From the NCBI GenBank assembly GCA_965209055.1, contig OZ242374.1:4448001-4512000 (forward strand): a stretch of 64,000 nucleotides of DNA, given 5' to 3'. A program made the position numbers and the translations under genes. Source of the DNA: Acidobacteriota bacterium (lineage in GTDB: Bacteria; Acidobacteriota; UBA6911; RPQK01; JAJDTT01). Shown piece by piece: positions 44,800 through 62,045 of this stretch; within the stretch, counting starts at the first letter, position 1; each line of letters begins with the position of its first letter. The notes below the pieces were generated by a model. That model saw only the letters and a program-made list of their open reading frames with translations, did not search any database and was not told the DNA's origin.

Positions 44800-44824
44800 G
44801 AGGTGGGACTGTTAGTCCCCCACT
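44793..44824. repeat. REP-like repeat unit (uninterrupted copy of the element's target site)
   Basis: ggaataggaggtgggactgttagtcccccact. 30/32 identical to the reconstructed empty site at 47120/49918. Confidence 0.85.
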
Positions 44825-44880
44825 GGAAGGGCGACTGTCCAGGCGACCATTCTTTCCAAATACAAAGTAGGATAGAGCGC

Positions 44881-45783
44881 ATGTTCGAAGAATTCACCCG
44901 AACCCGGATCGACGCCGACGGCACCTCCATCCACCTCGTCCACGGCGGACAGGGCCCTCCGCTCCTGCTGCTTCACGGATACCCCCAGACCCACGTCATG
45001 TGGCACAAGACGGCGCCGCTGCTGGCGCCGCACTTCACCGTGGTCGCACCCGACCTGCGCGGCTACGGCGACAGCGGAAAACCTCCCGTCCCCGCGGGAG
45101 ACCTGAGCGTCTACTGCAAGCGGACCACGGCCAACGACCAGGTCCAGGTCATGGCCCATCTCGGGTTCGATTCCTTCCACGTCGTGGGCCACGATCGCGG
45201 CGCCCGGGTCGGACACCGGATGGCCCTGGACCATCCGGACCGGGTCCGAACCCTGACCTCCCTGGACGTGGTCCCCTCCCAGGCGGCCTTCGACAAAATG
45301 GACAAGGACCTGTCTTTTTCCTGGTTTCACTGGCATTTAATGCGGCAACCCGAACCTTTTCCTGAAACTCTTATCGGCAACAGCGCCAAGTTCTACCTGG
45401 ACTTCCTCCTGGAGCGATGGTGCGGCATCGAAGGCTCCATCACCCCGGAGGCCTACGACGAGTATCTACGCTGTTTCTCCGACCCCGAGACGATCCGCGC
45501 CACCTGCCTGGACTACCGGGGCATCGAGCTGGACCTGGTCCACGACGAGGAGGACCGGGAACGGCGGCTGAGCTGTCCGGTGCTGGCGCTCTGGGGCAGC
45601 GACACCACCAAGCGTCCAGGTTGGCAGACCGGAGCCAGTCTGGATATGCTCACGGTGTGGCGGGAGAGAGCCGTGGACGTCCGGGGCCGAGCCTTGGCCT
45701 GCGGGCACTTCCTGCCCGAGGAGCTGCCCCAGGAGACAGCCGGCGAAATCATGAAGTTCCTGGGAGTCCGCCCAGATTCCTGA
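44881..45783 (+). CDS. Alpha/beta hydrolase, fluoroacetate dehalogenase-like
   Basis: LLHGYPQTHVMWH, DLRGYGDS, GHDRGARV and CGHFLPEE. Confidence 0.9.
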   Translation: MFEEFTRTRIDADGTSIHLVHGGQGPPLLLLHGYPQTHVMWHKTAPLLAPHFTVVAPDLRGYGDSGKPPVPAGDLSVYCKRTTANDQVQVMAHLGFDSFHVVGHDRGARVGHRMALDHPDRVRTLTSLDVVPSQAAFDKMDKDLSFSWFHWHLMRQPEPFPETLIGNSAKFYLDFLLERWCGIEGSITPEAYDEYLRCFSDPETIRATCLDYRGIELDLVHDEEDRERRLSCPVLALWGSDTTKRPGWQTGASLDMLTVWRERAVDVRGRALACGHFLPEELPQETAGEIMKFLGVRPDS

Positions 45784-45821
45784 ATCATCGGCGTGAGTCT
45801 TGGATTGAAGGAGAACCCCTG

Positions 45822-47120
45822 ATGATGAGACGTCCCTTCCAGTTGCTCGCCCCGACCGCGCTCGCCATCGTCATCGGCGCCTGCCAGCCGGCTCCCGAGC
45901 CAAAGACGCCATCCGACCCGCCCAAGATCCGTCTGGAGGTGGGTGATCCCGTGACGGTGCCTACCGGCCAATACCCGGGCCTGTCCTACGGGCCCCGGAT
46001 GGTGACCCTGCCGGACGGAAGAGTCCTGGTCGGCCGGGGAGAGATCGCCTTGACCACGACCGACTCGGGGGCGACATGGGACGTGGGCCCGGCCATCGCC
46101 AGGCCGCACCTGCTTCCTCTCCGGGACGGAAGCTATTTCTTCCTGAAGGGCCGCGGTTCCGCCACCGGCGAGCCGGGGCTGTTCTCCCTGGAAATGGCGC
46201 ACGTCCAGTCCCTGGATGAAAACGCCACCGAAGAACGGATCTCCTGGTCCCCCGCCACGGCGCGCGTCGACCGTTGGACGCCGCTGACGGCCGACAACGA
46301 GAGCGAAGTGGACTACCTGGGCGTCGGGGGCCCGTTCCTGGAGTTGGATGACGGGACCCTGCTGGCCGCCTGCTACGGGAATTTCAAGGGAGACACGGTG
46401 CCCATGGAGGGATTTCCCGCCACCAGCGGCCAGAAGTGGTTCAAGTACCGAACCTACCTGTTGTCCTCCAGCGACGGCGGCGCCACCTGGGAGTACCTCT
46501 CCACCATCGCCTACGACGGAGTCACGGGCCAGGAGAGCTTCTGCGAACCGGCCATGGTGGACCTTAGCGGCGGGGAGTTGTTGGCGGTGATGCGGACCGG
46601 CCGTTTCGCGCCCATGTTCCAGGTCCGTTCCCTGGACGGCGGCAATACCTGGCAGGAACCGGAGTCCATGCACATCCTGGGTCTGGCGCCCCAGATGGTC
46701 CTGCTGGAGAACGGCGCCCTCGTGTGCAGCTTCGGCTGGAGACGTCTGAAGGTGGGCTACGGCCATGGACTCAACGACGAGGGCGGACCGTACCCGGTCG
46801 CATTGCGGGATTACCAGGAACGCTATCTTCAAGACGTGGGCATCGAGAACCCGTCCGAAGCGGCCGGCGATTACGTGATGGTCAGCCTGGACAAGGGGAA
46901 GACCTGGTCCGAGCCCCGCAAGTTCGCCGAGCCCCTCACCTCCGGGTACACTCTCTTGGCCGCCACCGGACCCGACACCGTCCTGGTCATGTCAGCCAGA
47001 CTCACCATTCCGGGCCAGTCCCAGGAGCGTCACCTGGAGATCTGGGAGCGGGAATGGCCCCAGTGGTCCGACAAGTCCGTCGTGGTAAGAGTCGCCCGAA
47101 AGATCCGCGTCGTGCTGTAG
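45822..47120 (+). CDS. Sialidase/BNR (Asp-box) repeat lipoprotein
   Basis: Lipobox IGAC. Asp-boxes TTDSGATW, SSDGGATW, SLDGGNTW and SLDKGKTW. Confidence 0.85.
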   Translation: MMRRPFQLLAPTALAIVIGACQPAPEPKTPSDPPKIRLEVGDPVTVPTGQYPGLSYGPRMVTLPDGRVLVGRGEIALTTTDSGATWDVGPAIARPHLLPLRDGSYFFLKGRGSATGEPGLFSLEMAHVQSLDENATEERISWSPATARVDRWTPLTADNESEVDYLGVGGPFLELDDGTLLAACYGNFKGDTVPMEGFPATSGQKWFKYRTYLLSSSDGGATWEYLSTIAYDGVTGQESFCEPAMVDLSGGELLAVMRTGRFAPMFQVRSLDGGNTWQEPESMHILGLAPQMVLLENGALVCSFGWRRLKVGYGHGLNDEGGPYPVALRDYQERYLQDVGIENPSEAAGDYVMVSLDKGKTWSEPRKFAEPLTSGYTLLAATGPDTVLVMSARLTIPGQSQERHLEIWEREWPQWSDKSVVVRVARKIRVVL

Positions 47121-47393
47121 GAATAGGAGGGGGGACTGTTAGTCCCAACTGTCCCACAGTCAAAGACTACCGAACGTTAACGTTTTCAATATGTTACCGG
47201 GTTCTTCGCCGGACCGGTAAGGTGTTTGACTCCCCATGTTTGACGTGCTGAACAGGCAACAAACAGGCAGCCGAATCGGTTCCTGACAGCCGCCCCGCCC
47301 TTTTTTCCCCTTCCGGTGCCTGGCTCAGAGCCCTTATCAGTTAGGCTTTGCTGACCGTTTGGCTCCACCGCAGGACTCAGCCTGAGGCCGAAG

Positions 47394-47621
47394 GTGTCCG
47401 GCTTCGAACGGCTCGGCATTCCCAAGCATCAGCATCCCCGGCAAGTGTACTACGGCACGGTCGGGAAGACCCGGCACTACTTGGCGTTCAAACTGCCGAT
47501 TGCCGTCGAGGACGACAGGGCCGTCCTCGTCGGTGTCGATCCGGAGCCTGTGGCCACCAAGGGTCTGCGCTCCTGGATGGCGGCGCACCGGCGGTGGAGG
47601 AGCGCTCCGTCTCAGTTGTGA
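47394..47621 (+). pseudogene. Short hypothetical ORF, probably a gene fragment, inside the element
   Basis: 75-aa ORF with protein-like composition (RHYLAFKLPIAVEDDRAVLVGVDP). No RBS. Function not recognised. Confidence 0.4.
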
Positions 47622-47831
47622 TCGAGATGACCACTCTCGGCCGCCGCAAAGATTTTTGGAGACTCGTTTCGGGTGTGCGTCAAGGGGTCTCGCGCCCGAT
47701 CCGGGAGTGTGAATGGGACATGGGGGGTGGATTCACAAAAAGCGGTCCCGGTGATTCACACCTCCGCTTTCCCCGATCGTTTTTCCTTTCAGTCAGTTAC
47801 GGCCCCCTACCCCCGGACGCCGGCGCCCGCA

Positions 47832-47959
47832 CGGGGAGATCGGAGGTGGACGGGAGCGACCCCCCCTTTTTGCTGCCCGGTGCGGGCGCGGGGGTGTTGC
47901 GCGATTCACATCTGCGCAACACCCCCTGGGGGGGTCGCTCCCGTCTCAATTATCCTTGC
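47832..47959 (+). ncRNA. Candidate structured RNA/ssDNA element, copy A (three-way junction)
   Basis: 18-bp outer stem (47849-47866/47928-47945) encloses 6-bp and 13-bp hairpins. Covaries with copy B. Confidence 0.6.
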
Positions 47960-48405
47960 AGGAAGGCCCGGAGGAAGACCGTGGACCGGGTGGACCTGTC
48001 CCCCCAAACCCCCCAGTGGCGCCAGAACCCCTGGCGGCTCACATTGCCGCCAGTGAACCTGACGCTCGTCGCGGGTGGGCCAGCCCCCCCGAACCCCCCG
48101 GATGCGAAGAGACACATACCAACTGAAAATCCCTTCCAGAGAGCGCCGAGGCCCTGGGTTCGAGCCTCCCCACCGTGTGGAAAATCAGAGATTTCCCACA
48201 GGGTGCGTCGTTTTGCCGACCCTACAATCAGCGCCCCCCACCAAAGAAAGTCTGCTCCCGGCTGGAAGCCGTCCGAGACCGCGCGAGGGACCCATTCCTA
48301 TGGGACGCGACAAACAGGAGCGCGTGAAAAAGGGTCAGGCAGGGTGAGCCTGACTCTTTGAGGGCGCCACTGGGGGGTCTGGGGGGAAAGGTTCCCCCCG
48401 GTCCG

Positions 48406-48685
48406 TCATCCGTTCCGGCTGGCCGGCCTCGCGGACCAGGACGTCACCGGCCCGCCGTTGGAGGACCTCGACCACGGTCGCGGTCCAGGTCTCTTGGCCC
48501 CGCGTCGTGATCGGGATGGAGCCGCCGAGAAGGCGCTCGGGGAGCTTGCCGGTGGCCGCAAGGCAGGACGAACTCCAGGAGCCCTCTTCGAGCTTGTAGG
48601 GACTCCACGCCGACGATACGGAGCTTTCGCAGGTGTTTTGCCATCGACACCGGAGAGGTTGGACAGGGGCCGTGCTGGCGGCCAT
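48406..48685 (-). CDS. Small hypothetical protein (possibly degenerate), divergent from the integrase; boundaries approximate
   Basis: The segment SPYKLEEGSW...LPERLLGGSIPITTRGQETWTATVVEVLQR...VLVR looks like a small beta-domain. The ORF-track frame (48335-48685) runs on into the structured region, so the 3' boundary given here is not a stop codon. Confidence 0.35.
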
Positions 48686-48744
48686 GGACAGGTGGTACGA
48701 TTCGCCCCATGGCGAAGAACCCGGATCCGGAAAGGAGGAGATGC

Positions 48745-49956
48745 ATGGGCATCTACAAGGTGAAGGATCGCCGGGGGAGACGACGTTTCGTCGTCAGCAA
48801 GTACTGGCCGAACGGATCCGGTCGGCTCCGAATGTACGCCCCCAACTACCGGAGCGCACAGGCGCTTCAAACACGAATCGAGTCCAGCATCCTGGACGGC
48901 ACATGGAAGCAGCTCAAGGAGGAGCTCGCCGGCGGGAAACGCACCATCTGGACGGTCCGGAGCTTCTACGAGCGTTTCTTCGAGGAGTATTGCAAACCTC
49001 GTCTGCGCTCTTTGCGCCGGTACACGCTCTCGTTCAAGAGCCTCAACGCCATGCTGGGGAACATTCCCTTGAAGGAGTTCCAGCGCAAGGACCTCCACCG
49101 CTACGTCGCGAAACGGAAGGGGCAGGTCCAGCCGGCCACGGTGAACCGCGACATTGCGGCCCTCAGCAAGCTGTTTTCCTACGCGCTGGAGTGCGGGGAA
49201 GTGGACACGCACCCGCTGGTGAGATTCCCCAAACTCAAAGAACCCAAGAAGGTCTTCCGGCCCTTGACGGTTCAACAGTTCCGCGACCTGGTCGAGGCGG
49301 TGGACAACCCTTACCTGCAAGCCATGATCGCGGTGATCGGCGAGACGGGGATACGGAAAGGCGAAGCGTTGTCGCTCACCTGGAAACGGTTGGACCTGTC
49401 CCGGAGGCTGCTATGGGTGGAGTTCACCAAGGACGACGAGCCGAGGGAGATTCCGCTCTCGAAGTACGCTGCCGGATATCTGGCCGGGCTGGTTCGCTAC
49501 CTGAACATCCCTTACGTCTTCGTCAACACCCGGACGGGGACGAAATGGGTGAATCCCGACAAGCCTTTGCGCCGGGCCGCCGAGCGGGTGGGGTTGAAGG
49601 TCGGATTTCACGACCTGAGACGCTTCCGGTGCAGCCATTGGCTGATGCAGGGGGTGGACGTGAGGACGGTGCAGAAGCTGATGGGGCACTCATCGATCAG
49701 CACGACCATGCGCTACGCGGGTTACGTCAGTTCTCATGCACTCGCCAGCATACGGGAGGCACAGGCTACCGAAGACTCACAAATGCGACCGGCAACAAAC
49801 AGGCAACGGGCAGGAAATAGGGGAATGATTAGAGAAGAGCAGTGGCGTAAACCCTTGAAAACACAAGCACACGCCCCAAGCTCAGCAGGACAGAGCACGG
49901 GACTGTTAGTCCCCCATTCTTCAGTGTCGCTACTGGATACGATGGGTGGTAGGTGA
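48745..49956 (+). CDS. Tyrosine recombinase/phage-type integrase
   Basis: AGGAGG RBS. Catalytic R (GIRKGE), K (TKDD), HxxR (FHDLRR), H (LMGHSS) and Y (MRYA). PATVNRD core-binding motif. Confidence 0.93.
   Translation: MGIYKVKDRRGRRRFVVSKYWPNGSGRLRMYAPNYRSAQALQTRIESSILDGTWKQLKEELAGGKRTIWTVRSFYERFFEEYCKPRLRSLRRYTLSFKSLNAMLGNIPLKEFQRKDLHRYVAKRKGQVQPATVNRDIAALSKLFSYALECGEVDTHPLVRFPKLKEPKKVFRPLTVQQFRDLVEAVDNPYLQAMIAVIGETGIRKGEALSLTWKRLDLSRRLLWVEFTKDDEPREIPLSKYAAGYLAGLVRYLNIPYVFVNTRTGTKWVNPDKPLRRAAERVGLKVGFHDLRRFRCSHWLMQGVDVRTVQKLMGHSSISTTMRYAGYVSSHALASIREAQATEDSQMRPATNRQRAGNRGMIREEQWRKPLKTQAHAPSSAGQSTGLLVPHSSVSLLDTMGGR
49871..49914 (+). other. tRNA-like 5' half (acceptor 5' strand, D-arm, GTT anticodon arm) at the element's right end
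   Basis: ACGCCCCAAGCTCAGCAGGACAGAGC matches the local tRNA-Arg 5' end at 21/26 positions without gaps. D-stem GCTC/GAGC is intact. No T-arm follows. Confidence 0.7.
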
Positions 49957-50027
49957 AAGTGCATAGGGGGACTCCGTCCCCCTGCCCCCCCTGGTCGGCG
50001 ACAGGAAAGTCGCCGCTCCCTCGGCGG

Positions 50028-51776
50028 CTAGAAAGCCGCTGCTCCATCCGTTTCCGGTTCGTAGACGGGGTCGCCCCGATGAAGGCGGATGGCCACGCGG
50101 AGAGTCTGGTTCATGGCCCTTTGCGTCGGAGCGTGAGCCGCCAGATAACGGGCCGCTCCGACCATCACCAGATTCCTTTCCTCCCGATCCTCGGTCTCAC
50201 CGTATTGCCGAACGGCCGCCTCCAGCATCTGGAAGGTGTGGAAGTTGGCGTCTTCCCGCATCAGGCTCTCGGTCAAGGCCGAGATGAGCGGGCCGCCGGA
50301 CCCGCCGCCTTCCAGGTAGGTCCAGACCATCTGTCCGGCCCGGTCCGTCTCCTGCTGGTGGTTCATGAGTGTCAGGAGGCGGGACCGGATCGAATTCCCC
50401 CCGGATTCCGCGCCGGCCGCCGCCCGGCTTGAAGGCAGTCTTGCGGGCGGGATGTTGAAGAAACGGTCCAGGTAGACCCGCATGGCTCCGTGAAACACGC
50501 CCCTTGTCAGGTCCGGCGACTGGTTGCGTTTAAGCAGTTGATGCAGGGCATTGGAATAGGTGAAGGTGTGAAGGACGGCGATCCAGTCGGCCAACTCGTT
50601 CTGGACGTGAAAGTGGACGATGCGCAGCGCCGCGGCATAGGCCACCGCCTGGGCCAACTCCACCGGTTGGGCGCCCCCACGCAACGCCGCCAGCAGTGCC
50701 TCGATGGGGGTGTGAGGATCGTCGCTGAAAAGGGTTTCGGTGAAGTCCTGCGGCTTGGTCCAGATCTTCCCCTGCCCCGATTCCAGAGCCTCGGGAATCT
50801 GAGCCACGGCCTGGCGCAGCACCGGCACCAGATCGATGGGGTGCCGCCACGGGTTCCTCTCCTCGCTTCGAACCGCCAGGCACAGAGGCCGGATCAGGGC
50901 GGGCAGCAACCGGCCGGCATGTTCCCAGCCGATGCGGTCCAGCAGTTCGAAAGCCTTGTTCACGAAGTCGATGACGTGACCCCCATCCAGGTATACGTGG
51001 TCCGTGGCCGCGGCCCCGACCAGGTCGGTCAGTTGCGCGCTCGTCATCCCCTTGTGGACGGCGGTCAGAAGGCAGCGCTCGGCGCCCTCGGTGCTGCGGA
51101 CCTCCACGAAGTAGCGGAACCAGCGTTTGAGATGCTCTGCCGGGATTTCCTGATTTCGAAGGGGCGGGATCTCGAATTTGGGGGTGCGGCCGGCGCAGTC
51201 CCGGGCGATGTGGACCAGGCCATGGTACAGGGGCGGGATCCGCTCCGTCCCCTCCAGGAGGTCGCAGACATTGGCCATGGCGCTGAGAATGGTGAGGCCG
51301 GAACTCCAGTCCCGGCGATGCCGGACGCCGTAGAGCGCGCCCTGCCGCGCGACCTCATGGTGGGAGACGCCGCTGTGGTGCAGTCCCACCACCGACTTGC
51401 CCATGATCAAGCTGAGGTTCTGCTCCATTCCCTCCTGGAGCCGCCGGCTCCAGCGCTGGACCGGATCGACCGGCGGCGGCGTGACGTCCAGGTAGACCTC
51501 TCCGCCCCGGACCTCCACACGGAAGGAATCCACGTCGTCCGCGAACAGGTTGAAGGTGCATCCGCTCACCAGGTCGAAGCGCGCATGGTGCCAGTAGCAG
51601 GTGAGGATGCCGTCCTCCACGGTGCCGCGGTGCAGTGGAAAACCCATGTGCGGACAGCGGTTGTCGACGGCGCGCAGCTCTCCGTCGTGGTCGAAGATCA
51701 CGATGGGGACCGGACCCTTGGACACCACCAGGGGACTCCTGGACCGAACTTCCTCCAGCGATCCGACATGAATCAT
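50028..51776 (-). CDS. Rieske (2Fe-2S) domain protein with large C-terminal helical region
   Basis: CPHMGFPL...TCYWHHARFD Rieske motif. C-terminal GHVIDF, HTFTY and FHTFQ motifs. Confidence 0.85.
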   Translation of the reverse strand: MIHVGSLEEVRSRSPLVVSKGPVPIVIFDHDGELRAVDNRCPHMGFPLHRGTVEDGILTCYWHHARFDLVSGCTFNLFADDVDSFRVEVRGGEVYLDVTPPPVDPVQRWSRRLQEGMEQNLSLIMGKSVVGLHHSGVSHHEVARQGALYGVRHRRDWSSGLTILSAMANVCDLLEGTERIPPLYHGLVHIARDCAGRTPKFEIPPLRNQEIPAEHLKRWFRYFVEVRSTEGAERCLLTAVHKGMTSAQLTDLVGAAATDHVYLDGGHVIDFVNKAFELLDRIGWEHAGRLLPALIRPLCLAVRSEERNPWRHPIDLVPVLRQAVAQIPEALESGQGKIWTKPQDFTETLFSDDPHTPIEALLAALRGGAQPVELAQAVAYAAALRIVHFHVQNELADWIAVLHTFTYSNALHQLLKRNQSPDLTRGVFHGAMRVYLDRFFNIPPARLPSSRAAAGAESGGNSIRSRLLTLMNHQQETDRAGQMVWTYLEGGGSGGPLISALTESLMREDANFHTFQMLEAAVRQYGETEDREERNLVMVGAARYLAAHAPTQRAMNQTLRVAIRLHRGDPVYEPETDGAAAF

Positions 51777-54564: not shown

Positions 54565-55047
54565 TCAGGCACCATCGGCACCGGGAACGCAAAGGTCCCC
54601 CACGCGATCAACTACACGCTGGGCATGCTCGTAATACTCACGGATGCGGCTGTAGGTCAGTCCGACGGAACCTCCGTGAGCGATGACATTGCGCAGGCTC
54701 ACGATACTGTCGACCGCCACCTTACGTTCTTCGACCAGGAATTCCTCCAGTTCCTGCTGCCAATTCGGGTCGAAACTGCCCAAGAGCTGTTGGACGCGCG
54801 AGGCCTTCGCGTTCGTGAATCTCTTCGTTCGCAGCTCGACAAATCGTTGCAGTGTCGGCCCGCCCTTTTGCCGCGCATGTTCCAGTACAAACGCAACCAC
54901 AGCCTTCTCGATATAGCCCGAGACCAAAACACAGAGGTATCTGGCGAAGTCCGCCTGCAACTTGAGGTCTGGCCCGACGACGTTCGCTCGGTTGAAGGTC
55001 GCGTCAAGCCGCTGCTTCATCATGGAAACCTCAGCACGGCCTGTCAT
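54565..55047 (-). CDS. HEPN domain protein (RiboL-PSP/MAE_28990-like putative RNase)
   Basis: All-helical 160 aa, VLVSGYIE, RxxxxH motif RNVIAH. Overlaps the upstream gene stop. Confidence 0.8.
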   Translation of the reverse strand: MTGRAEVSMMKQRLDATFNRANVVGPDLKLQADFARYLCVLVSGYIEKAVVAFVLEHARQKGGPTLQRFVELRTKRFTNAKASRVQQLLGSFDPNWQQELEEFLVEERKVAVDSIVSLRNVIAHGGSVGLTYSRIREYYEHAQRVVDRVGDLCVPGADGA

Positions 55048-56183
55048 CTGACATCCACAAAGATATCCTTCGCGAGCTTCATTCGAGTCCGGACATTGGC
55101 CTCTTGCGAAGTCCCCTTGTCAGTCGCTGCGAGGTATTCGTGACTACTGAGCAACGACCGGTACCGGCGCAGGAATTGCTCGGCATCCCCTATCTCTCCA
55201 GACCTGAGACGTTTGGCAACTCCCGTCATCAAGGAGTCCACGACAGCGGCGTTCACGGCTCTCTTGGGTCGGAATGCTCGCCGCCCCAGAATGCTGTTCA
55301 ATACCGAAGTGGTCCTGCAGAAAACCTGTCGCAGTTCTGCCTCTGACTGCCTGTCAAGGTTCCGGTTCTCAGCCATGTACCGATTCAGGAAATCCTTCAT
55401 CGGCCTGCGATACCGATCGAAGCGATAGTAGAAGGCAAAGAATCGGAGGATCATCTCCATGTCCTTCAGACGCCGGGATTTTTTGCCGTACAGTTCTCGC
55501 CATGCCCGCTCTTCGTTGAGGCTCTTCAGAACCCGCACCAGTTGGCCATGATAGAGGGCCACACGGATCTCCTGGGGTTGGAGATTGACGCCTCCGGCAT
55601 TCAGGCGCTCGAAAATAATGTAAATACTACTTTGGTCCTCACTCGGCTCGTCCTGCCTGACGACGGTGGCGTGAATGATACTGTCGCCGAGTCTTCGACG
55701 GTCCTCTATATCCAGATCCGTGAAACGCATTCCCACGAAACGCCTTTGTACGTTTTCGAGGCGGTATTCCCGACCGTTGATCAGTCCTTTGTAATACCGG
55801 TGGAGGGTGTGGAGCCGTTGGTGTCCATCGAGCACCAGTAAGCGACCCGACGCTTCCCTGACCAGAAAAATACCGGGAACAGGCAGACCAAGGAGGAGGG
55901 ACTCAATGAACTTGTCCGCCTTCGGCTTCGGCCATACGTATTCGCGTTGAAATCCGACGATCCTGCTGTCTTCTTCGGAAACCCAGTCAAATGTCGGTAC
56001 AATGATGTCGCCGCGATCAAGTTGTTTTACGAGGGAATCCACAGGGCAGTCCGCACCATAGAACGTGATGCTATGGGTATACGGAATGACCTCATCTGCT
56101 TCGTCGAGGACATCTACGTCCTCTTCGACCCGGTTGTCGACAAGCGCTGACTCAGACATTTCCTGATGTCGAATTTCTCCCAT
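55044..56183 (-). CDS. DUF262 (GmrSD/ParB-like) domain protein
   Basis: FQREYVW, IESLLLGLPVP, LDGHQRL and IFERLNAGG..L.PQEIR. Confidence 0.9.
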   Translation of the reverse strand: MGEIRHQEMSESALVDNRVEEDVDVLDEADEVIPYTHSITFYGADCPVDSLVKQLDRGDIIVPTFDWVSEEDSRIVGFQREYVWPKPKADKFIESLLLGLPVPGIFLVREASGRLLVLDGHQRLHTLHRYYKGLINGREYRLENVQRRFVGMRFTDLDIEDRRRLGDSIIHATVVRQDEPSEDQSSIYIIFERLNAGGVNLQPQEIRVALYHGQLVRVLKSLNEERAWRELYGKKSRRLKDMEMILRFFAFYYRFDRYRRPMKDFLNRYMAENRNLDRQSEAELRQVFCRTTSVLNSILGRRAFRPKRAVNAAVVDSLMTGVAKRLRSGEIGDAEQFLRRYRSLLSSHEYLAATDKGTSQEANVRTRMKLAKDIFVDVR

Positions 56184-59418: not shown

Positions 59419-60549
59419 TCAATCCCCCGTCTGGGCCGGCTCTTCGGGATAGCGAAGATGCCAGGCACACCGGCCACAGCAGGTCTTGCCCAGACGATCG
59501 AAGATTCCGCCGTGGTGGTGCAGTTCCGGATGCCGGTCGTTGGCCCGGCAGAGAGGCCATCTCCGGCCGTCCGCCTCGTGGTAGCCGGCAAACGAGGGAC
59601 AGTCCTCCCGGACCACGCCGTCACCGTCCTGTGGAAGATCGATGCGATCGGGCAGTTCCGCCGGTCCCCGGCGCCAGGCCCGCAGCATGCCGGCTCCCTT
59701 GGCCAGGGCATCGGCGGCCAGATCGCCGTTTGCGGCATCGGCCGGCCGCAAGACGAAGCAATCGGGATCGTCGGCCATGATGGTGGCCATGAACCGGCGG
59801 AAGACGCGGGCCCGGATCAACCCCGAGTCGCTGCGTCCGACCTTGCCGGTGGTCATGATCCCCGAGGCCCGGACCACGTCCTGCATGATCCCGGGAAAAT
59901 CGTACTGGATCCGCTTTCCCGTGGCGCAGTAGGAGAGATGGCGGACCTCGGGATGGTAGTAGCCCAGGTAGCCCACCTCCAGGAGGTCCTCGTAGTAGTG
60001 CCAGAGCGTGATGGTGTCGACTCCGACTCCCAGGATGACGATGCAACCGTCCCACTCCACCACTTTCTCGAACGGATTCCCCCGGCCGCACGGCGTGGGG
60101 CACTCCCGCTGTCCCCGCAGGGCATCCCTCCGCCGGGCCCCGTTGGCGATCCAGGAGTGGGTGGGATGGCAGCCTCGCAGGCGGCCGGGGCGTTGGAGAG
60201 CGGCGTTGGGGATCGCCCCCTCCCGGCTGGCCCACTGGCTGGGGCAGAAGTCCTGCGGGCAGACCCCGCGGCAGTCCGGGAGGGCCATATGCTCGGTCCA
60301 GGCGCCTCCCGTGAAGGCCGGTGTCAACAAGGTCCCCTCCGGTCCCATGGCCTCCAGGAAGGCCTCCACCACCGTCGCCGCACCTCCCTCGACCCATCCC
60401 AGGCGGCTCAGGGAGCTGTGCAGCATGACGCAGTCCCCTTTTCGCACCCCGAGCCGAGTGAGATCCTGCGTCAAGCGTTTCCTGGTGATGCTTCGGGGCG
60501 AAGAGGGGATGTTGAGAGAGGTCTCTGCCACTGGCTGCGAGAATGTCAC
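59419..60549 (-). CDS. AAC(3) family N-acetyltransferase with Cys-rich extension
   Basis: LGVRKGD.VMLHSSLSRLGWVEGG, HPTHS and TLWHYYE. Confidence 0.85.
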   Translation of the reverse strand: MTFSQPVAETSLNIPSSPRSITRKRLTQDLTRLGVRKGDCVMLHSSLSRLGWVEGGAATVVEAFLEAMGPEGTLLTPAFTGGAWTEHMALPDCRGVCPQDFCPSQWASREGAIPNAALQRPGRLRGCHPTHSWIANGARRRDALRGQRECPTPCGRGNPFEKVVEWDGCIVILGVGVDTITLWHYYEDLLEVGYLGYYHPEVRHLSYCATGKRIQYDFPGIMQDVVRASGIMTTGKVGRSDSGLIRARVFRRFMATIMADDPDCFVLRPADAANGDLAADALAKGAGMLRAWRRGPAELPDRIDLPQDGDGVVREDCPSFAGYHEADGRRWPLCRANDRHPELHHHGGIFDRLGKTCCGRCAWHLRYPEEPAQTGD

Positions 60550-60761
60550 AGCACCCGAAACGGATCAAGACGTCTCGGATCTGAGGATTCCTCTATATTG
60601 TGGCCCCAAGCAAGCAGCGCAACAGGGACTGGTCCAACTACGAGCCCATTGAGATCCGAATGACGAGCGTTGTCGTTGGTGACAACATATGGCATGCGCA
60701 CAAGGACACGCCCCATCGGATGGATTCGGGCGGCACGGATATCGGGTCCGCCCGCGCCGAT

Positions 60762-60886
60762 CGGGGAAATCGGAGGTGGACGGGAGCGCCCCCCTTTTCG
60801 CTGCCCGGATCGGGCACGGCGGCGTTGCGCAACTTACCTTTGCGCAACGCCGCCTGGGGGGGCGCTCCCGTCCCATCAATCCTTGC
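60762..60886 (+). ncRNA. Candidate structured RNA/ssDNA element, copy B
   Basis: 17-bp outer stem (60778-60794/60857-60873) with inner 6-bp and 15-bp hairpins. Homologous to 47832-47959. Confidence 0.6.
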
Positions 60887-61016
60887 GGACTGTTTCCCTA
60901 AAGCCCATAAACCATTCTCTATAATAGAGTTATGAGATTTCCACCACCGCTCTTCCCCCCATTCTTTCCACCGGGATGAATCGGATGTCTTTGGCCCTTC
61001 GTGGCCGTGAACGGAC

Positions 61017-61368
61017 GTAACCGTTCGGTCAAGCCGTGGAGATCGACTTCCTGAGCCGGCCCTGCGGCCTCGCGCTCAAAGAGAGACAAACACCTGACGA
61101 AGGGCCACCTCTCCACCTCCAACGGGGTGGAGGCACAGACCGGATAATGTGCCCCATGGTGTCAGAACGATGCGGGTGTCAGAACGATGCGGTCGAATCG
61201 CGTGCCGTACAAAGATTTTGCGGCCGACGATCACCTGCCGCTATCCTTTCCCACGGAGATCTTACTGCCGCGAAGAGTGGTTCAAGCCCGACAGCAACCC
61301 AACGGGAATTGATCACTGCGGCGAGGATGCCGACCGACCTCTCTTCCACGGCTTGACCGAACGGTTAC
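61017..61368. mobile_element. Internally deleted IS/MITE with 24-bp perfect TIRs (IS66-like GTAA ends)
   Basis: gtaaccgttcggtcaagccgtgga (61017-61040) is the exact reverse complement of 61345-61368. Confidence 0.8.
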
Positions 61369-62045
61369 CCTTGGACTCCATGGACGAGTTTCGAGCCTCA
61401 ACTCGAAACCAAGCCGCCTAGCGTGGGAGTCGGTGAAGCGCCACCGAAGGCGCGAATTGGATCCGGAAAGCCATCGAGCAGGATCATGCCATGGCCCTGC
61501 TTGCGCTCCGTTACTTTGACGGCCAGGGACTCGAAAAAGCCGCCGCCGTGGCCGAGAGGTGGGTGCGCAAGGCCGCACGACAAGGCAATACCTTCGCTTC
61601 TGACCTTATCGGTCTCGGGAACCTAGATCCGCGATCCGGAAACAAGGGCCAGAGGACGACACCCTGATCCCTGCCCGTGACCCTCTGATATTCGCCCGGT
61701 GGAGCGGTCCGCCGCTGCCCTCTCCTTGCCCGATTTGGTGAGCCCATTGGAGTGAAAAACGAGGCAAGGTTCCTATCCGTCGGGTCGACAACTCCTCCTG
61801 CACTTCGGCCAAAAGGTTTTCCATCGCATCATTAAATACTGTCGGGAGGCCCCTCGTTACCTGGAGGAATAGACCTGGATGCCCGCTCACTCCCTAAGAA
61901 TTTCCTATCCTAGCGAACAAAGATCCGCGACTTTCTTTCTGGCGGCGCCCTTGGGTTCGAGTTTGCGGGTCTCGTCGGAGCCAACTACAGCACTGGGGCG
62001 ATTCTCTCGATTCCCGCCAGGGACTTCTCAGCCCCCTTATAGCGT

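Follow-up and report, generated by a model that had tools for sequence, protein, structure and literature searches.

We analysed a 64,000-nt window of an Acidobacteriota genome (contig OZ242374.1, here C1; C1:4448001-4512000; the genome is a single contig of 6.08 Mb, 62.8% G+C, 98.4% complete) and propose that a structured intergenic element in it, which we call element S, is an origin of transfer (oriT), and that the small islands carrying S are oriT-only hitchers; we put the probability of this reading at about 0.6. Its source was most likely a conjugative element, from which it was copied to dozens of small islands that integrate and carry anti-phage genes.

The window holds two copies of S, both on the + strand, where an initial annotation made from the letters alone had placed them (copy A at 47832-47959, copy B at about 60762-60888); they are 84% identical over 195 aligned columns. 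The same annotation described the element as present twice, which is true of the window but not of the genome, where BLAST revealed 64 copies, 31 on the + strand and 33 on the - strand, 73-100% identical within the genome and with a common core corresponding to window 47827-47967. It had also proposed Rfam and covariance-model searches as checks. At gathering thresholds Rfam matched only two tRNAs in the whole window, and its best sub-threshold score on S was 23.4 bits against a cut-off of 53.1, so that the novelty of S is not removed by Rfam; nor did we find a description of S in the literature on Acidobacteriota tyrosine recombinases and defence, or on sponge conjugative elements and origins of transfer. 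A covariance model (R1) built from 82 sequences detected S in 26 of the 76 genomes of the order and in 10 of its 32 genera. Across an evenly drawn sample of 151 genomes of the phylum, strong matches occurred only in five genomes of this order, and three weak matches outside it (E = 3e-6 to 5e-5) may be due to chance. The genomes concerned are sponge-, coral- and marine-associated Acidobacteriota metagenome-assembled genomes.

S in conjugation clusters and on islands

We expanded 18 loci around the most divergent S copies, taken from other genera and families, and found S inside a type IV secretion cluster in 12 of them. Upstream of S, these clusters encode, in this order, VirB9 (CagX), VirB10 (TrbI), an unassigned open reading frame (ORF), VirB6 (TrbL), VirB8 and a protein of ~310 amino acids (aa), and S is followed by a coupling protein (TraG-D_C + TrwB_AAD_bind, ~770 aa), a VirB11-like ATPase, and SNase or ArdC. 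Eleven of the 12 clusters have the 310-aa gene ahead of S, and in six loci the coupling protein starts 47-48 nt after the model match to S. Each examined cluster has a single S, between a DNA-binding gene and the coupling protein, and this position is syntenic across at least six families. The genome under study has exactly one such cluster (C1:1827670-1838060, - strand), which additionally encodes VirB4, a VirB2-type pilin, a primase-like protein and AlpA; its S copy (C1:1832115-1832255), which is among the sequences used to build the covariance model, again lies between the 310-aa gene and the coupling protein, and is 76% identical to copy A.

Among the 76 genomes of the order, the 310-aa protein was found in 26, of which 25 also have S, whilst one genome has S only and one the protein only; this overlap is partly trivial, because remnants of the gene travel with S. 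The coupling protein was detected in 17 of these genomes, and S in all 17. At no fewer than 16 sites, S is preceded by a full-length 310-aa gene at a distance of 150-330 nt. A full-length paralog of this gene also comes after each of three ArdC-like anti-restriction genes (C1:477582-479920, 1991772-1993631 and 2522645-2524519), and at least the first of these loci has an S copy after it.

Beside its conjugation cluster, the genome contains about 26 small islands with a common backbone, comprising a GGGACTGTTAGTCCC core at both ends, one tyrosine recombinase and S. Their modules run in the order left end, variable stretch, module U, S, cargo, recombinase and right core, with S 0.6-19 kb upstream of the recombinase and on the same strand. 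The recombinase has 26 near-full paralogs in the genome, at 87-100% aa identity. Exact GGGACTGTTAGTCCC cores number 37, and some of them are empty sites of the form AGGAGGG-core-CCC; one follows a paralog of the BNR gene that stands beside the copy A island, and other empty cores sit directly after stop codons. Within the window, an empty core (AGGAGGT-GGGACTGTTAGTCCC-CC, 44803-44830) overlaps the predicted GTG start of an alpha/beta-hydrolase ORF (44803-45783).

Copy A lies within a mobile element of 2796 bp (window 47126-49921) that has an exact twin at C1:6054121-6056916, with the identity spanning 47126 to 49921. The element is bounded by a direct repeat of GGGACTGTTAGTCCC, itself an imperfect palindrome, and its left core begins 5 nt after the stop codon of a BNR-repeat gene (45417-47120). 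Its sole intact gene is the tyrosine recombinase, which is Xer-like, scores far under every NCBIfam cut-off and has a reading frame that crosses the right core. Upstream of S, a decayed fragment of the 310-aa gene overlaps an apparent 75-aa ORF (47394-47621) with a coding-like pattern of G+C at third codon positions (GC3) and no Pfam or NCBIfam match, and the region of module U aligns, in other copies, with the C-terminus of the 310-aa protein. The copy A island is thus the minimal form of the family: 2.8 kb with a recombinase gene and S. We also considered copies A and B as attL and attR of a single 12.9-kb island, but the GGGACTGTTAGTCCC cores that end the island lie at 47.1 and 49.9 kb, and the sequence from 50 to 60 kb is ordinary chromosome; we rejected the idea on both grounds. 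That chromosomal stretch includes a GmrSD_N-type restriction endonuclease-like gene (55044-56183, - strand) and, just beyond 59 kb, a gene of the aminoglycoside 3-N-acetyltransferase family (59419-60549, - strand). A 401-aa ORF before copy B had suggested a TnpB/omega-RNA pair, an idea that we abandoned: the frame has no Pfam match and a non-coding GC3 pattern, and the true gene at this site is an acetyltransferase-like ORF on the opposite strand. Beside the right end of the copy A island, a short repeat with two small hairpins (49960-50050; GGCGAC..GTCGCC and GCGGC..GCCGC) has 71 BLAST matches in the genome, often near attachment cores.

Cargo was annotated in 14 larger islands. Defence genes predominate in it: restriction-modification systems of type I, type III, type ISP and MmeI-like kinds, GmrSD carrying a Schlafen domain, a HigB toxin paired with a helix-turn-helix (HTH) partner, and IrrE with DUF4411. 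Large leucine-rich-repeat (LRR) and fibronectin-III proteins also occur, as do inserted transposases and group II introns. In three recombinase paralogs (C1:784165-786140, 3708045-3710022 and 5306068-5308045), a 1.9-kb insert after nt 63 of a shared module encodes a 499-aa group II intron reverse transcriptase (RVT_1 + GIIM). The first 60-66 recombinase codons recur alone at C1:463582-463762, at 2757471-2757652 and in about five other places, and also at loci L143, L144 and L146; these solitary starts all break at about nt 182 and continue into one shared unrelated module, which could reflect a site-specific event or a separate small gene for an N-terminal domain.

The islands also retain parts of the conjugation cluster on either side of S. 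A remnant of the 310-aa gene, collinear and on the same strand, lies upstream of S in 32 of the 64 copies (near full length in three), and a remnant of the N-terminus of the coupling protein lies directly downstream in seven (full length in one). These flanking genes have decayed whilst S remains 73-100% identical, so that the intergenic S is the part retained: the islands carry an intergenic piece of the conjugation cluster with decayed stubs of both neighbouring genes. On the 3' side, the homology shared between copies ends no more than 25 nt after S in 17 of the 64, and several alternative modules follow the break. This genome and its relatives also have arrays in which two to four S units share one orientation and are separated by genes. 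Signs of horizontal spread come from the exact 2796-bp twin and from G023, a genome of another family, whose S copies are 91-93% identical to copy A, which argues for recent horizontal transfer.

Fold and conservation of S

Copies A and B fold alike, into a three-way junction with minimum free energies of -90.3 and -90.1 kcal/mol (z-scores -8.5 and -8.3), and none of 200 dinucleotide-shuffled sequences folds as well. An outer stem, P1, encloses two hairpins, and a conserved motif that resembles a nick region lies 3' of it (Table 1); the homology shared between copies often stops just past this motif. Several details had been anticipated by the initial annotation, which recognised that the helices are kept in both copies, that hairpin 2 differs by two compensatory pairs (GGGGGTGTTGCGC/GCGCAACACCCCC against GGCGGCGTTGCGC/GCGCAACGCCGCC) and that the flanks ATCGGAGGTG and ATCCTTGC are conserved. 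Its description of an outer stem that has lost an A-T pair and a C/G pair from both strands is accurate for the former only: copy B lacks the A and one C on the 5' arm and only a T on the 3' arm, where the run of G remains at seven and one G is left unpaired.

Covariation was examined over the 46 pairs of the proposed structure in 81 distinct sequences. Standard pairs fill 90.0% of cells, a share that falls to 44-58% if the 3' partner is shifted by 1-3 columns, and 20 of the 46 pairs show double-sided changes, against a shuffle mean of 11.9, with none of 500 shuffles reaching 20. As the S copies are related, these changes are not independent events. Better evidence of structural selection comes from compensatory swaps in the outer stem of divergent genomes: GACGGGAGCG/CGCTCCCGTC becomes GACGATAGCG/CGCTATCGTC in six divergent genomes and GACGAGAGCG/CGCTCTCGTC in two copies. 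Divergent copies exchange two adjacent outer-stem pairs, GGG/CCC giving way to GAT/ATC. In a sub-family, S', the sequence of hairpin 2 is wholly different and its pairing is kept. These comparisons support the view, already put forward in the initial annotation, that the structure of S is under selection. An octamer, GATTCACA, occurs three times in one orientation, at window 47730 and 47753 (module U) and at 47904 (loop of hairpin 2), and may be a protein-binding motif.

Copy B is one of three solo copies, and its homology to other copies extends only 15 nt to the left. On its right it is interrupted by a separate repeat, which adjoins S at the same junction, between GCGG and ACTGTTTC, in five copies of this genome (copy B included) and in two related genomes. 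This repeat has internal inverted segments and about ten copies, and its first bases resemble the attachment core.

Table 1. Coordinates of element S, its parts and the surrounding island features in the window.
Feature	Position in window	Strand	Basis or remark
Element S, copy A	47827-47967	+	Probable oriT; covariance-model match 47830-47968, 165.7 bits
Outer stem P1, 5' arm (GGACGGGAGCGACCCCCC)	47849-47866	+	Pairs with 47928-47945; fold and pair counts
Outer stem P1, 3' arm	47928-47945	+	Fold and pair counts
Hairpin 1	47872-47889	+	81.8% of cells paired
Hairpin 2	47890-47926	+	Stem varies, TTCACA-like loop letters kept; 12 of 16 pairs doubly changed
Nick-region-like motif (ATCCTTGCAGGAAGG)	47952-47966	+	Family consensus ATCCCT-N(0-3)-CGGGAAGG
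Left attachment core	47126-47143 (GGGACTGTTAGTCCC at 47129-47143)	+	Junction and empty sites seen
Conserved left-end module of island family	47126-47300	+	31 BLAST matches in genome
Decayed fragment of 310-aa gene (about residues 127-197)	47391-47591	+	tblastn, 58-61% identity
Upstream module U	47680-47826	+	42 BLAST matches; two GATTCACA motifs
Cargo slot	47968-48691	+	Repeated non-coding filler only, no convincing gene
Tyrosine recombinase, 415 aa	48709-49956	+	Pfam Phage_integrase, E = 2.2e-26
Right attachment core	49902-49916	+	Direct repeat of left core; twin identity ends at 49921
Element S, copy B	60760-60895	+	Covariance-model match, 129.8 bits; solo, without upstream module
Junction of copy B with another repeat (GCGG, then ACTGTTTC)	60888/60889		Cut in copy B; junction read from sequence
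Repeat module of ~500 nt adjoining copy B	60889-61446	+	Separate from S

A probable origin of transfer and competing explanations

According to the accessible part of PMC3772185, the nick region of an oriT is highly conserved and is preceded, immediately on its 5' side, by an inverted repeat that varies more. S has a comparable anatomy: the P1 inverted repeat of 17-19 bp is followed 6-9 nt later by ATCCCTGCGGGAAGG, and 12 of 14 aligned copies, drawn from 11 genomes, have this motif unchanged, whilst the enclosed hairpins diverge. Its location also suits an oriT, in a non-coding stretch of a conjugative cluster next to the coupling gene (12 of the 18 loci and the genome's own cluster). Length variation among island copies is concentrated at ATCCCT-N(0-3)-CGGGAAGG, a consensus matched by 51 of the 64 copies, and this variation, together with the repeat junction between GCGG and ACTG, may possibly be a footprint of cutting and joining. 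Of the two functions that the initial annotation had offered, a non-coding RNA and a single-stranded DNA transfer signal of mobile elements, it is the second that the gene context backs.

On the oriT reading, S would belong to a family of conjugative elements of sponge- and coral-associated Acidobacteriota. P1 of the + strand, with the two variable hairpins that it encloses, would fold in single-stranded DNA and position the relaxosome beside the near-invariant ATCCCTGCGGGAAGG, the presumed place of nicking and later rejoining. The recipient would first receive the DNA that lies 3' of the nick, which in the conjugative element leads towards the coupling protein and in the islands towards the cargo. 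The islands would excise and integrate by means of their own recombinase, and would transfer via the type IV secretion system and relaxase of the helper.

Several observations weigh against this proposal. The Pfam relaxase models Relaxase (PF03432), TrwC, TraI_2 and MobA_MobL, searches with which were positive in control genomes, gave no match in the genome (MOBV, MOBT, MOBC and MOBM profiles were not run), and the 310-aa protein has no Pfam, NCBIfam or PDB-sequence match above noise. The nick-region consensus of MOBP relaxases, (C/T)ATCCTG(C/T) in the accessible part of PMC3772185, is matched by none of the 64 genome copies and none of the 14 aligned copies; moreover, conservation runs about 9 nt past the G|C position suggested by analogy to RP4, so that the analogy does not fix the position of the nick. 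Wobble pairs pick no strand: across the 81 distinct sequences, 81 G.T and 122 A.C cells were counted in the three inner helices, and the preference for the + strand that the initial annotation had read from a T.G to T-A change is correspondingly weak. In the other six of the 18 divergent loci, S lies outside a recognisable conjugation cluster; its neighbours there are an LRR protein (a serine recombinase lying upstream), an AIPR protein or genes without assignment. S is present in each of the eight further species of the genus and, with the query used here, the coupling protein was detected in only one; island copies thus persist without a detectable helper, and many of them may be stranded or fossil. 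Finally, S of the conjugative elements lies in an apparent single transcription unit, 47-48 nt before the start of the coupling protein, so that it is probably transcribed and a role as RNA is possible.

Such a role, which we consider unlikely, would make S a structured RNA, acting as a leader, processing site or stability element of the transcript from the 310-aa gene to the coupling protein and co-opted by the islands, which might thereby couple the expression of their cargo to an activated helper. The position of S close before the coupling gene, on the strand of both flanking genes, would suit this, as would the covarying helices and the orientation of S in islands, which is that of the downstream cargo. 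We compared window 47126-49921 with three metatranscriptome runs and one DNA run, available as contigs: RNA-library contigs cover the recombinase gene and, in one of the three runs, parts of U and S, with relatives at 88-95% identity. DNA carry-over could account for this overlap, and as the contigs show neither strand nor ends, we draw no conclusion on transcription from them. Against an RNA, S has no Rfam match, no sigma-70-like promoter was found in 47100-48750, and no U-rich tail follows the stem; a promoter and terminator scan of that interval returned no promoter-like and two terminator-like sites, the latter away from S and not above shuffles. In islands the coupling-protein gene is decayed or gone and S is nevertheless kept, with the first cargo gene at a variable distance of 181-1540 nt. 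The most conserved letters of S, in the outer stem and the 3' flank, also fit sequence-specific recognition of DNA by a protein better than they fit a purely structural RNA.

Single-stranded promoters and priming sites occur in the leading regions of plasmids, and S could be imagined as a conjugation-related signal of this type, used in the recipient. It folds strongly on one strand, and defence and anti-restriction genes follow it directly and share its orientation. The folded stem lacks -35/-10-like boxes, however, each examined cluster has a single S placed where an oriT is expected, and a transferred + strand would be the sense strand of the cargo and hence not a template for transcription; we therefore regard this possibility as distinctly improbable. 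Still less probable is an attC-like folded site, used by the island recombinase to capture or exchange cassettes. Conserved ends around a variable branched centre, a short outer stem with an internal loop, the sharp break in homology after S, same-orientation arrays of S split by cargo genes and an Xer-like recombinase with a weak, partial match to integron integrases all recall such a system. That match amounts to 61.3 bits against TIGR02249 (cut-off 265) and 28.4 against NF011946 (cut-off 435), though, and in conjugative elements S lies among secretion genes and not beside a recombinase. The island ends use a different site, the GGGACTGTTAGTCCC core, and the 82-sequence alignment, whose ends read GGGGAAA.CGGAGGT and ATCCCTGCGGGAAGG, contains no RYYYAAC/GTTRRRY boxes when read by eye, without a motif scan. 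Least probable of all, in our estimate, is a selfish miniature repeat of MITE or REP type that spreads alone and without function for its carriers. The 64 copies, an outer stem like a terminal inverted repeat and the three solo copies without the upstream module (copy B included) are what such a repeat would produce, whereas 61 of the 64 copies share at least 150 nt of upstream homology, and half carry the same upstream gene remnant in the same orientation. No duplicated flank is apparent around S in the alignments, although no dedicated scan for target-site duplications was made, and the syntenic position in conjugation clusters of at least six families also speaks against solitary spread.

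If S is an oriT, the 310-aa protein could be a candidate relaxase or an accessory oriT-binding protein. In the ESM Atlas it falls only into clusters of Acidobacteriota hypothetical proteins. The full-length model has a pLDDT of 79, and only residues 1-89 match solved structures: they are predicted to form a winged helix that scores as high as Z = 9.1 against MarR/ArsR-type regulators. When modelled in isolation, the C-terminal domain reaches a pLDDT of 52.6, too poor for a fold search, and a nuclease-like reading of its conserved D/E/K residues is speculation. The accessible part of bioRxiv 10.64898/2026.01.13.699239 describes a relaxase family, MOBM, that resembles tyrosine recombinases. A bolder version of the oriT reading, which we hold only tentatively and think rather doubtful, is that the 310-aa protein is an unrecognised kind of relaxase or its specificity subunit, that S is its three-way-junction oriT, and that nicking at one S, with rejoining at the next one of like orientation, excises and reshuffles the intervening gene sets. 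On this view, a relaxase-driven cassette system that assembles and disseminates defence and host-interaction islands among sponge symbionts would have left the S arrays, and the sharp mosaic junction after ATCCCT-N(0-3)-CGGGAAGG, as its footprints.

Should S prove to be an oriT, it would reveal an extensive mobilisation network in an uncultured symbiont lineage, in which one conjugative machine serves dozens of minimal islands that move restriction-modification, other defence, LRR and fibronectin-type genes between families. The covariance model would then serve as a sequence-and-structure marker for such islands in metagenomes, and the conjugation system would be one whose relaxase escapes four standard Pfam models, with the 310-aa protein as a concrete candidate. 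The case also cautions that a covarying fold found in raw sequence need not be an RNA.

Relation to known systems

S resembles integron attC sites in being a folded single-strand site with conserved ends and a variable centre, repeated one way between cargo that includes defence genes. It differs in having neither an integron integrase nor R/L boxes, in element ends that use another core, and in its ancestral context, which is inside a conjugation operon.

The mobilizable islands of SXT/R391 elements and SGI1-type islands are likewise small and integrating; they mimic or share the oriT of a helper and carry restriction-modification or other defence cargo. They also encode excision factors, and SGI1 has its own tyrosine-recombinase-like relaxase, in contrast to the copy A island, which has a recombinase only. 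The SGI1 protein MpsA is named in the accessible part of bioRxiv 10.64898/2026.01.13.699239.

With the oriTs of MOBP systems (RP4 and Ti; H. pylori tfs4), as far as the accessible part of PMC3772185 describes them, S shares an inverted repeat directly 5' of a short conserved nick region, and TATCCCTGC in S resembles TATCCTGC. S has one extra base, however, and departs from the consensus given above; the genome has no PF03432 relaxase, and the arms of the S repeat are about 60 nt apart, the DNA between them forming two further hairpins and thereby the three-way junction.

The most extensive likeness is to the integrative hitchers (iOriT) of Ares-Arroyo et al. (bioRxiv 10.64898/2026.01.13.699239), which, in the accessible part of that preprint, are delimited by att sites, encode one integrase, carry a helper-like oriT and no mating-pair or relaxase genes, often outnumber their helpers and have defence genes near the oriT. 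The copy A island similarly has attachment cores at both ends, a recombinase at one end, empty sites elsewhere in the genome and a putative oriT 76% identical to the copy in the secretion cluster; only the recombinase is intact, mating-pair genes are absent, and a piece of the 310-aa pseudogene is present. The published set, as far as that part of the preprint describes it, comes from six nosocomial Proteobacteria and ties each oriT to an established relaxase family; chromosomes in that set have no more than nine integrative elements, and hardly any of the elements is shorter than 4 kb. The present case differs in its Acidobacteriota host, in its numbers (about 26 recombinase-bearing islands and 64 copies of S against one secretion cluster), in a minimum size of 2.8 kb and in a genome without a recognisable relaxase of the four Pfam families. 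The statement in the initial annotation that S belongs to no known family consequently holds with respect to Rfam but not to the kind of element, since oriTs on integrative hitchers are known; among described kinds, the oriT-only integrative hitcher comes closest.

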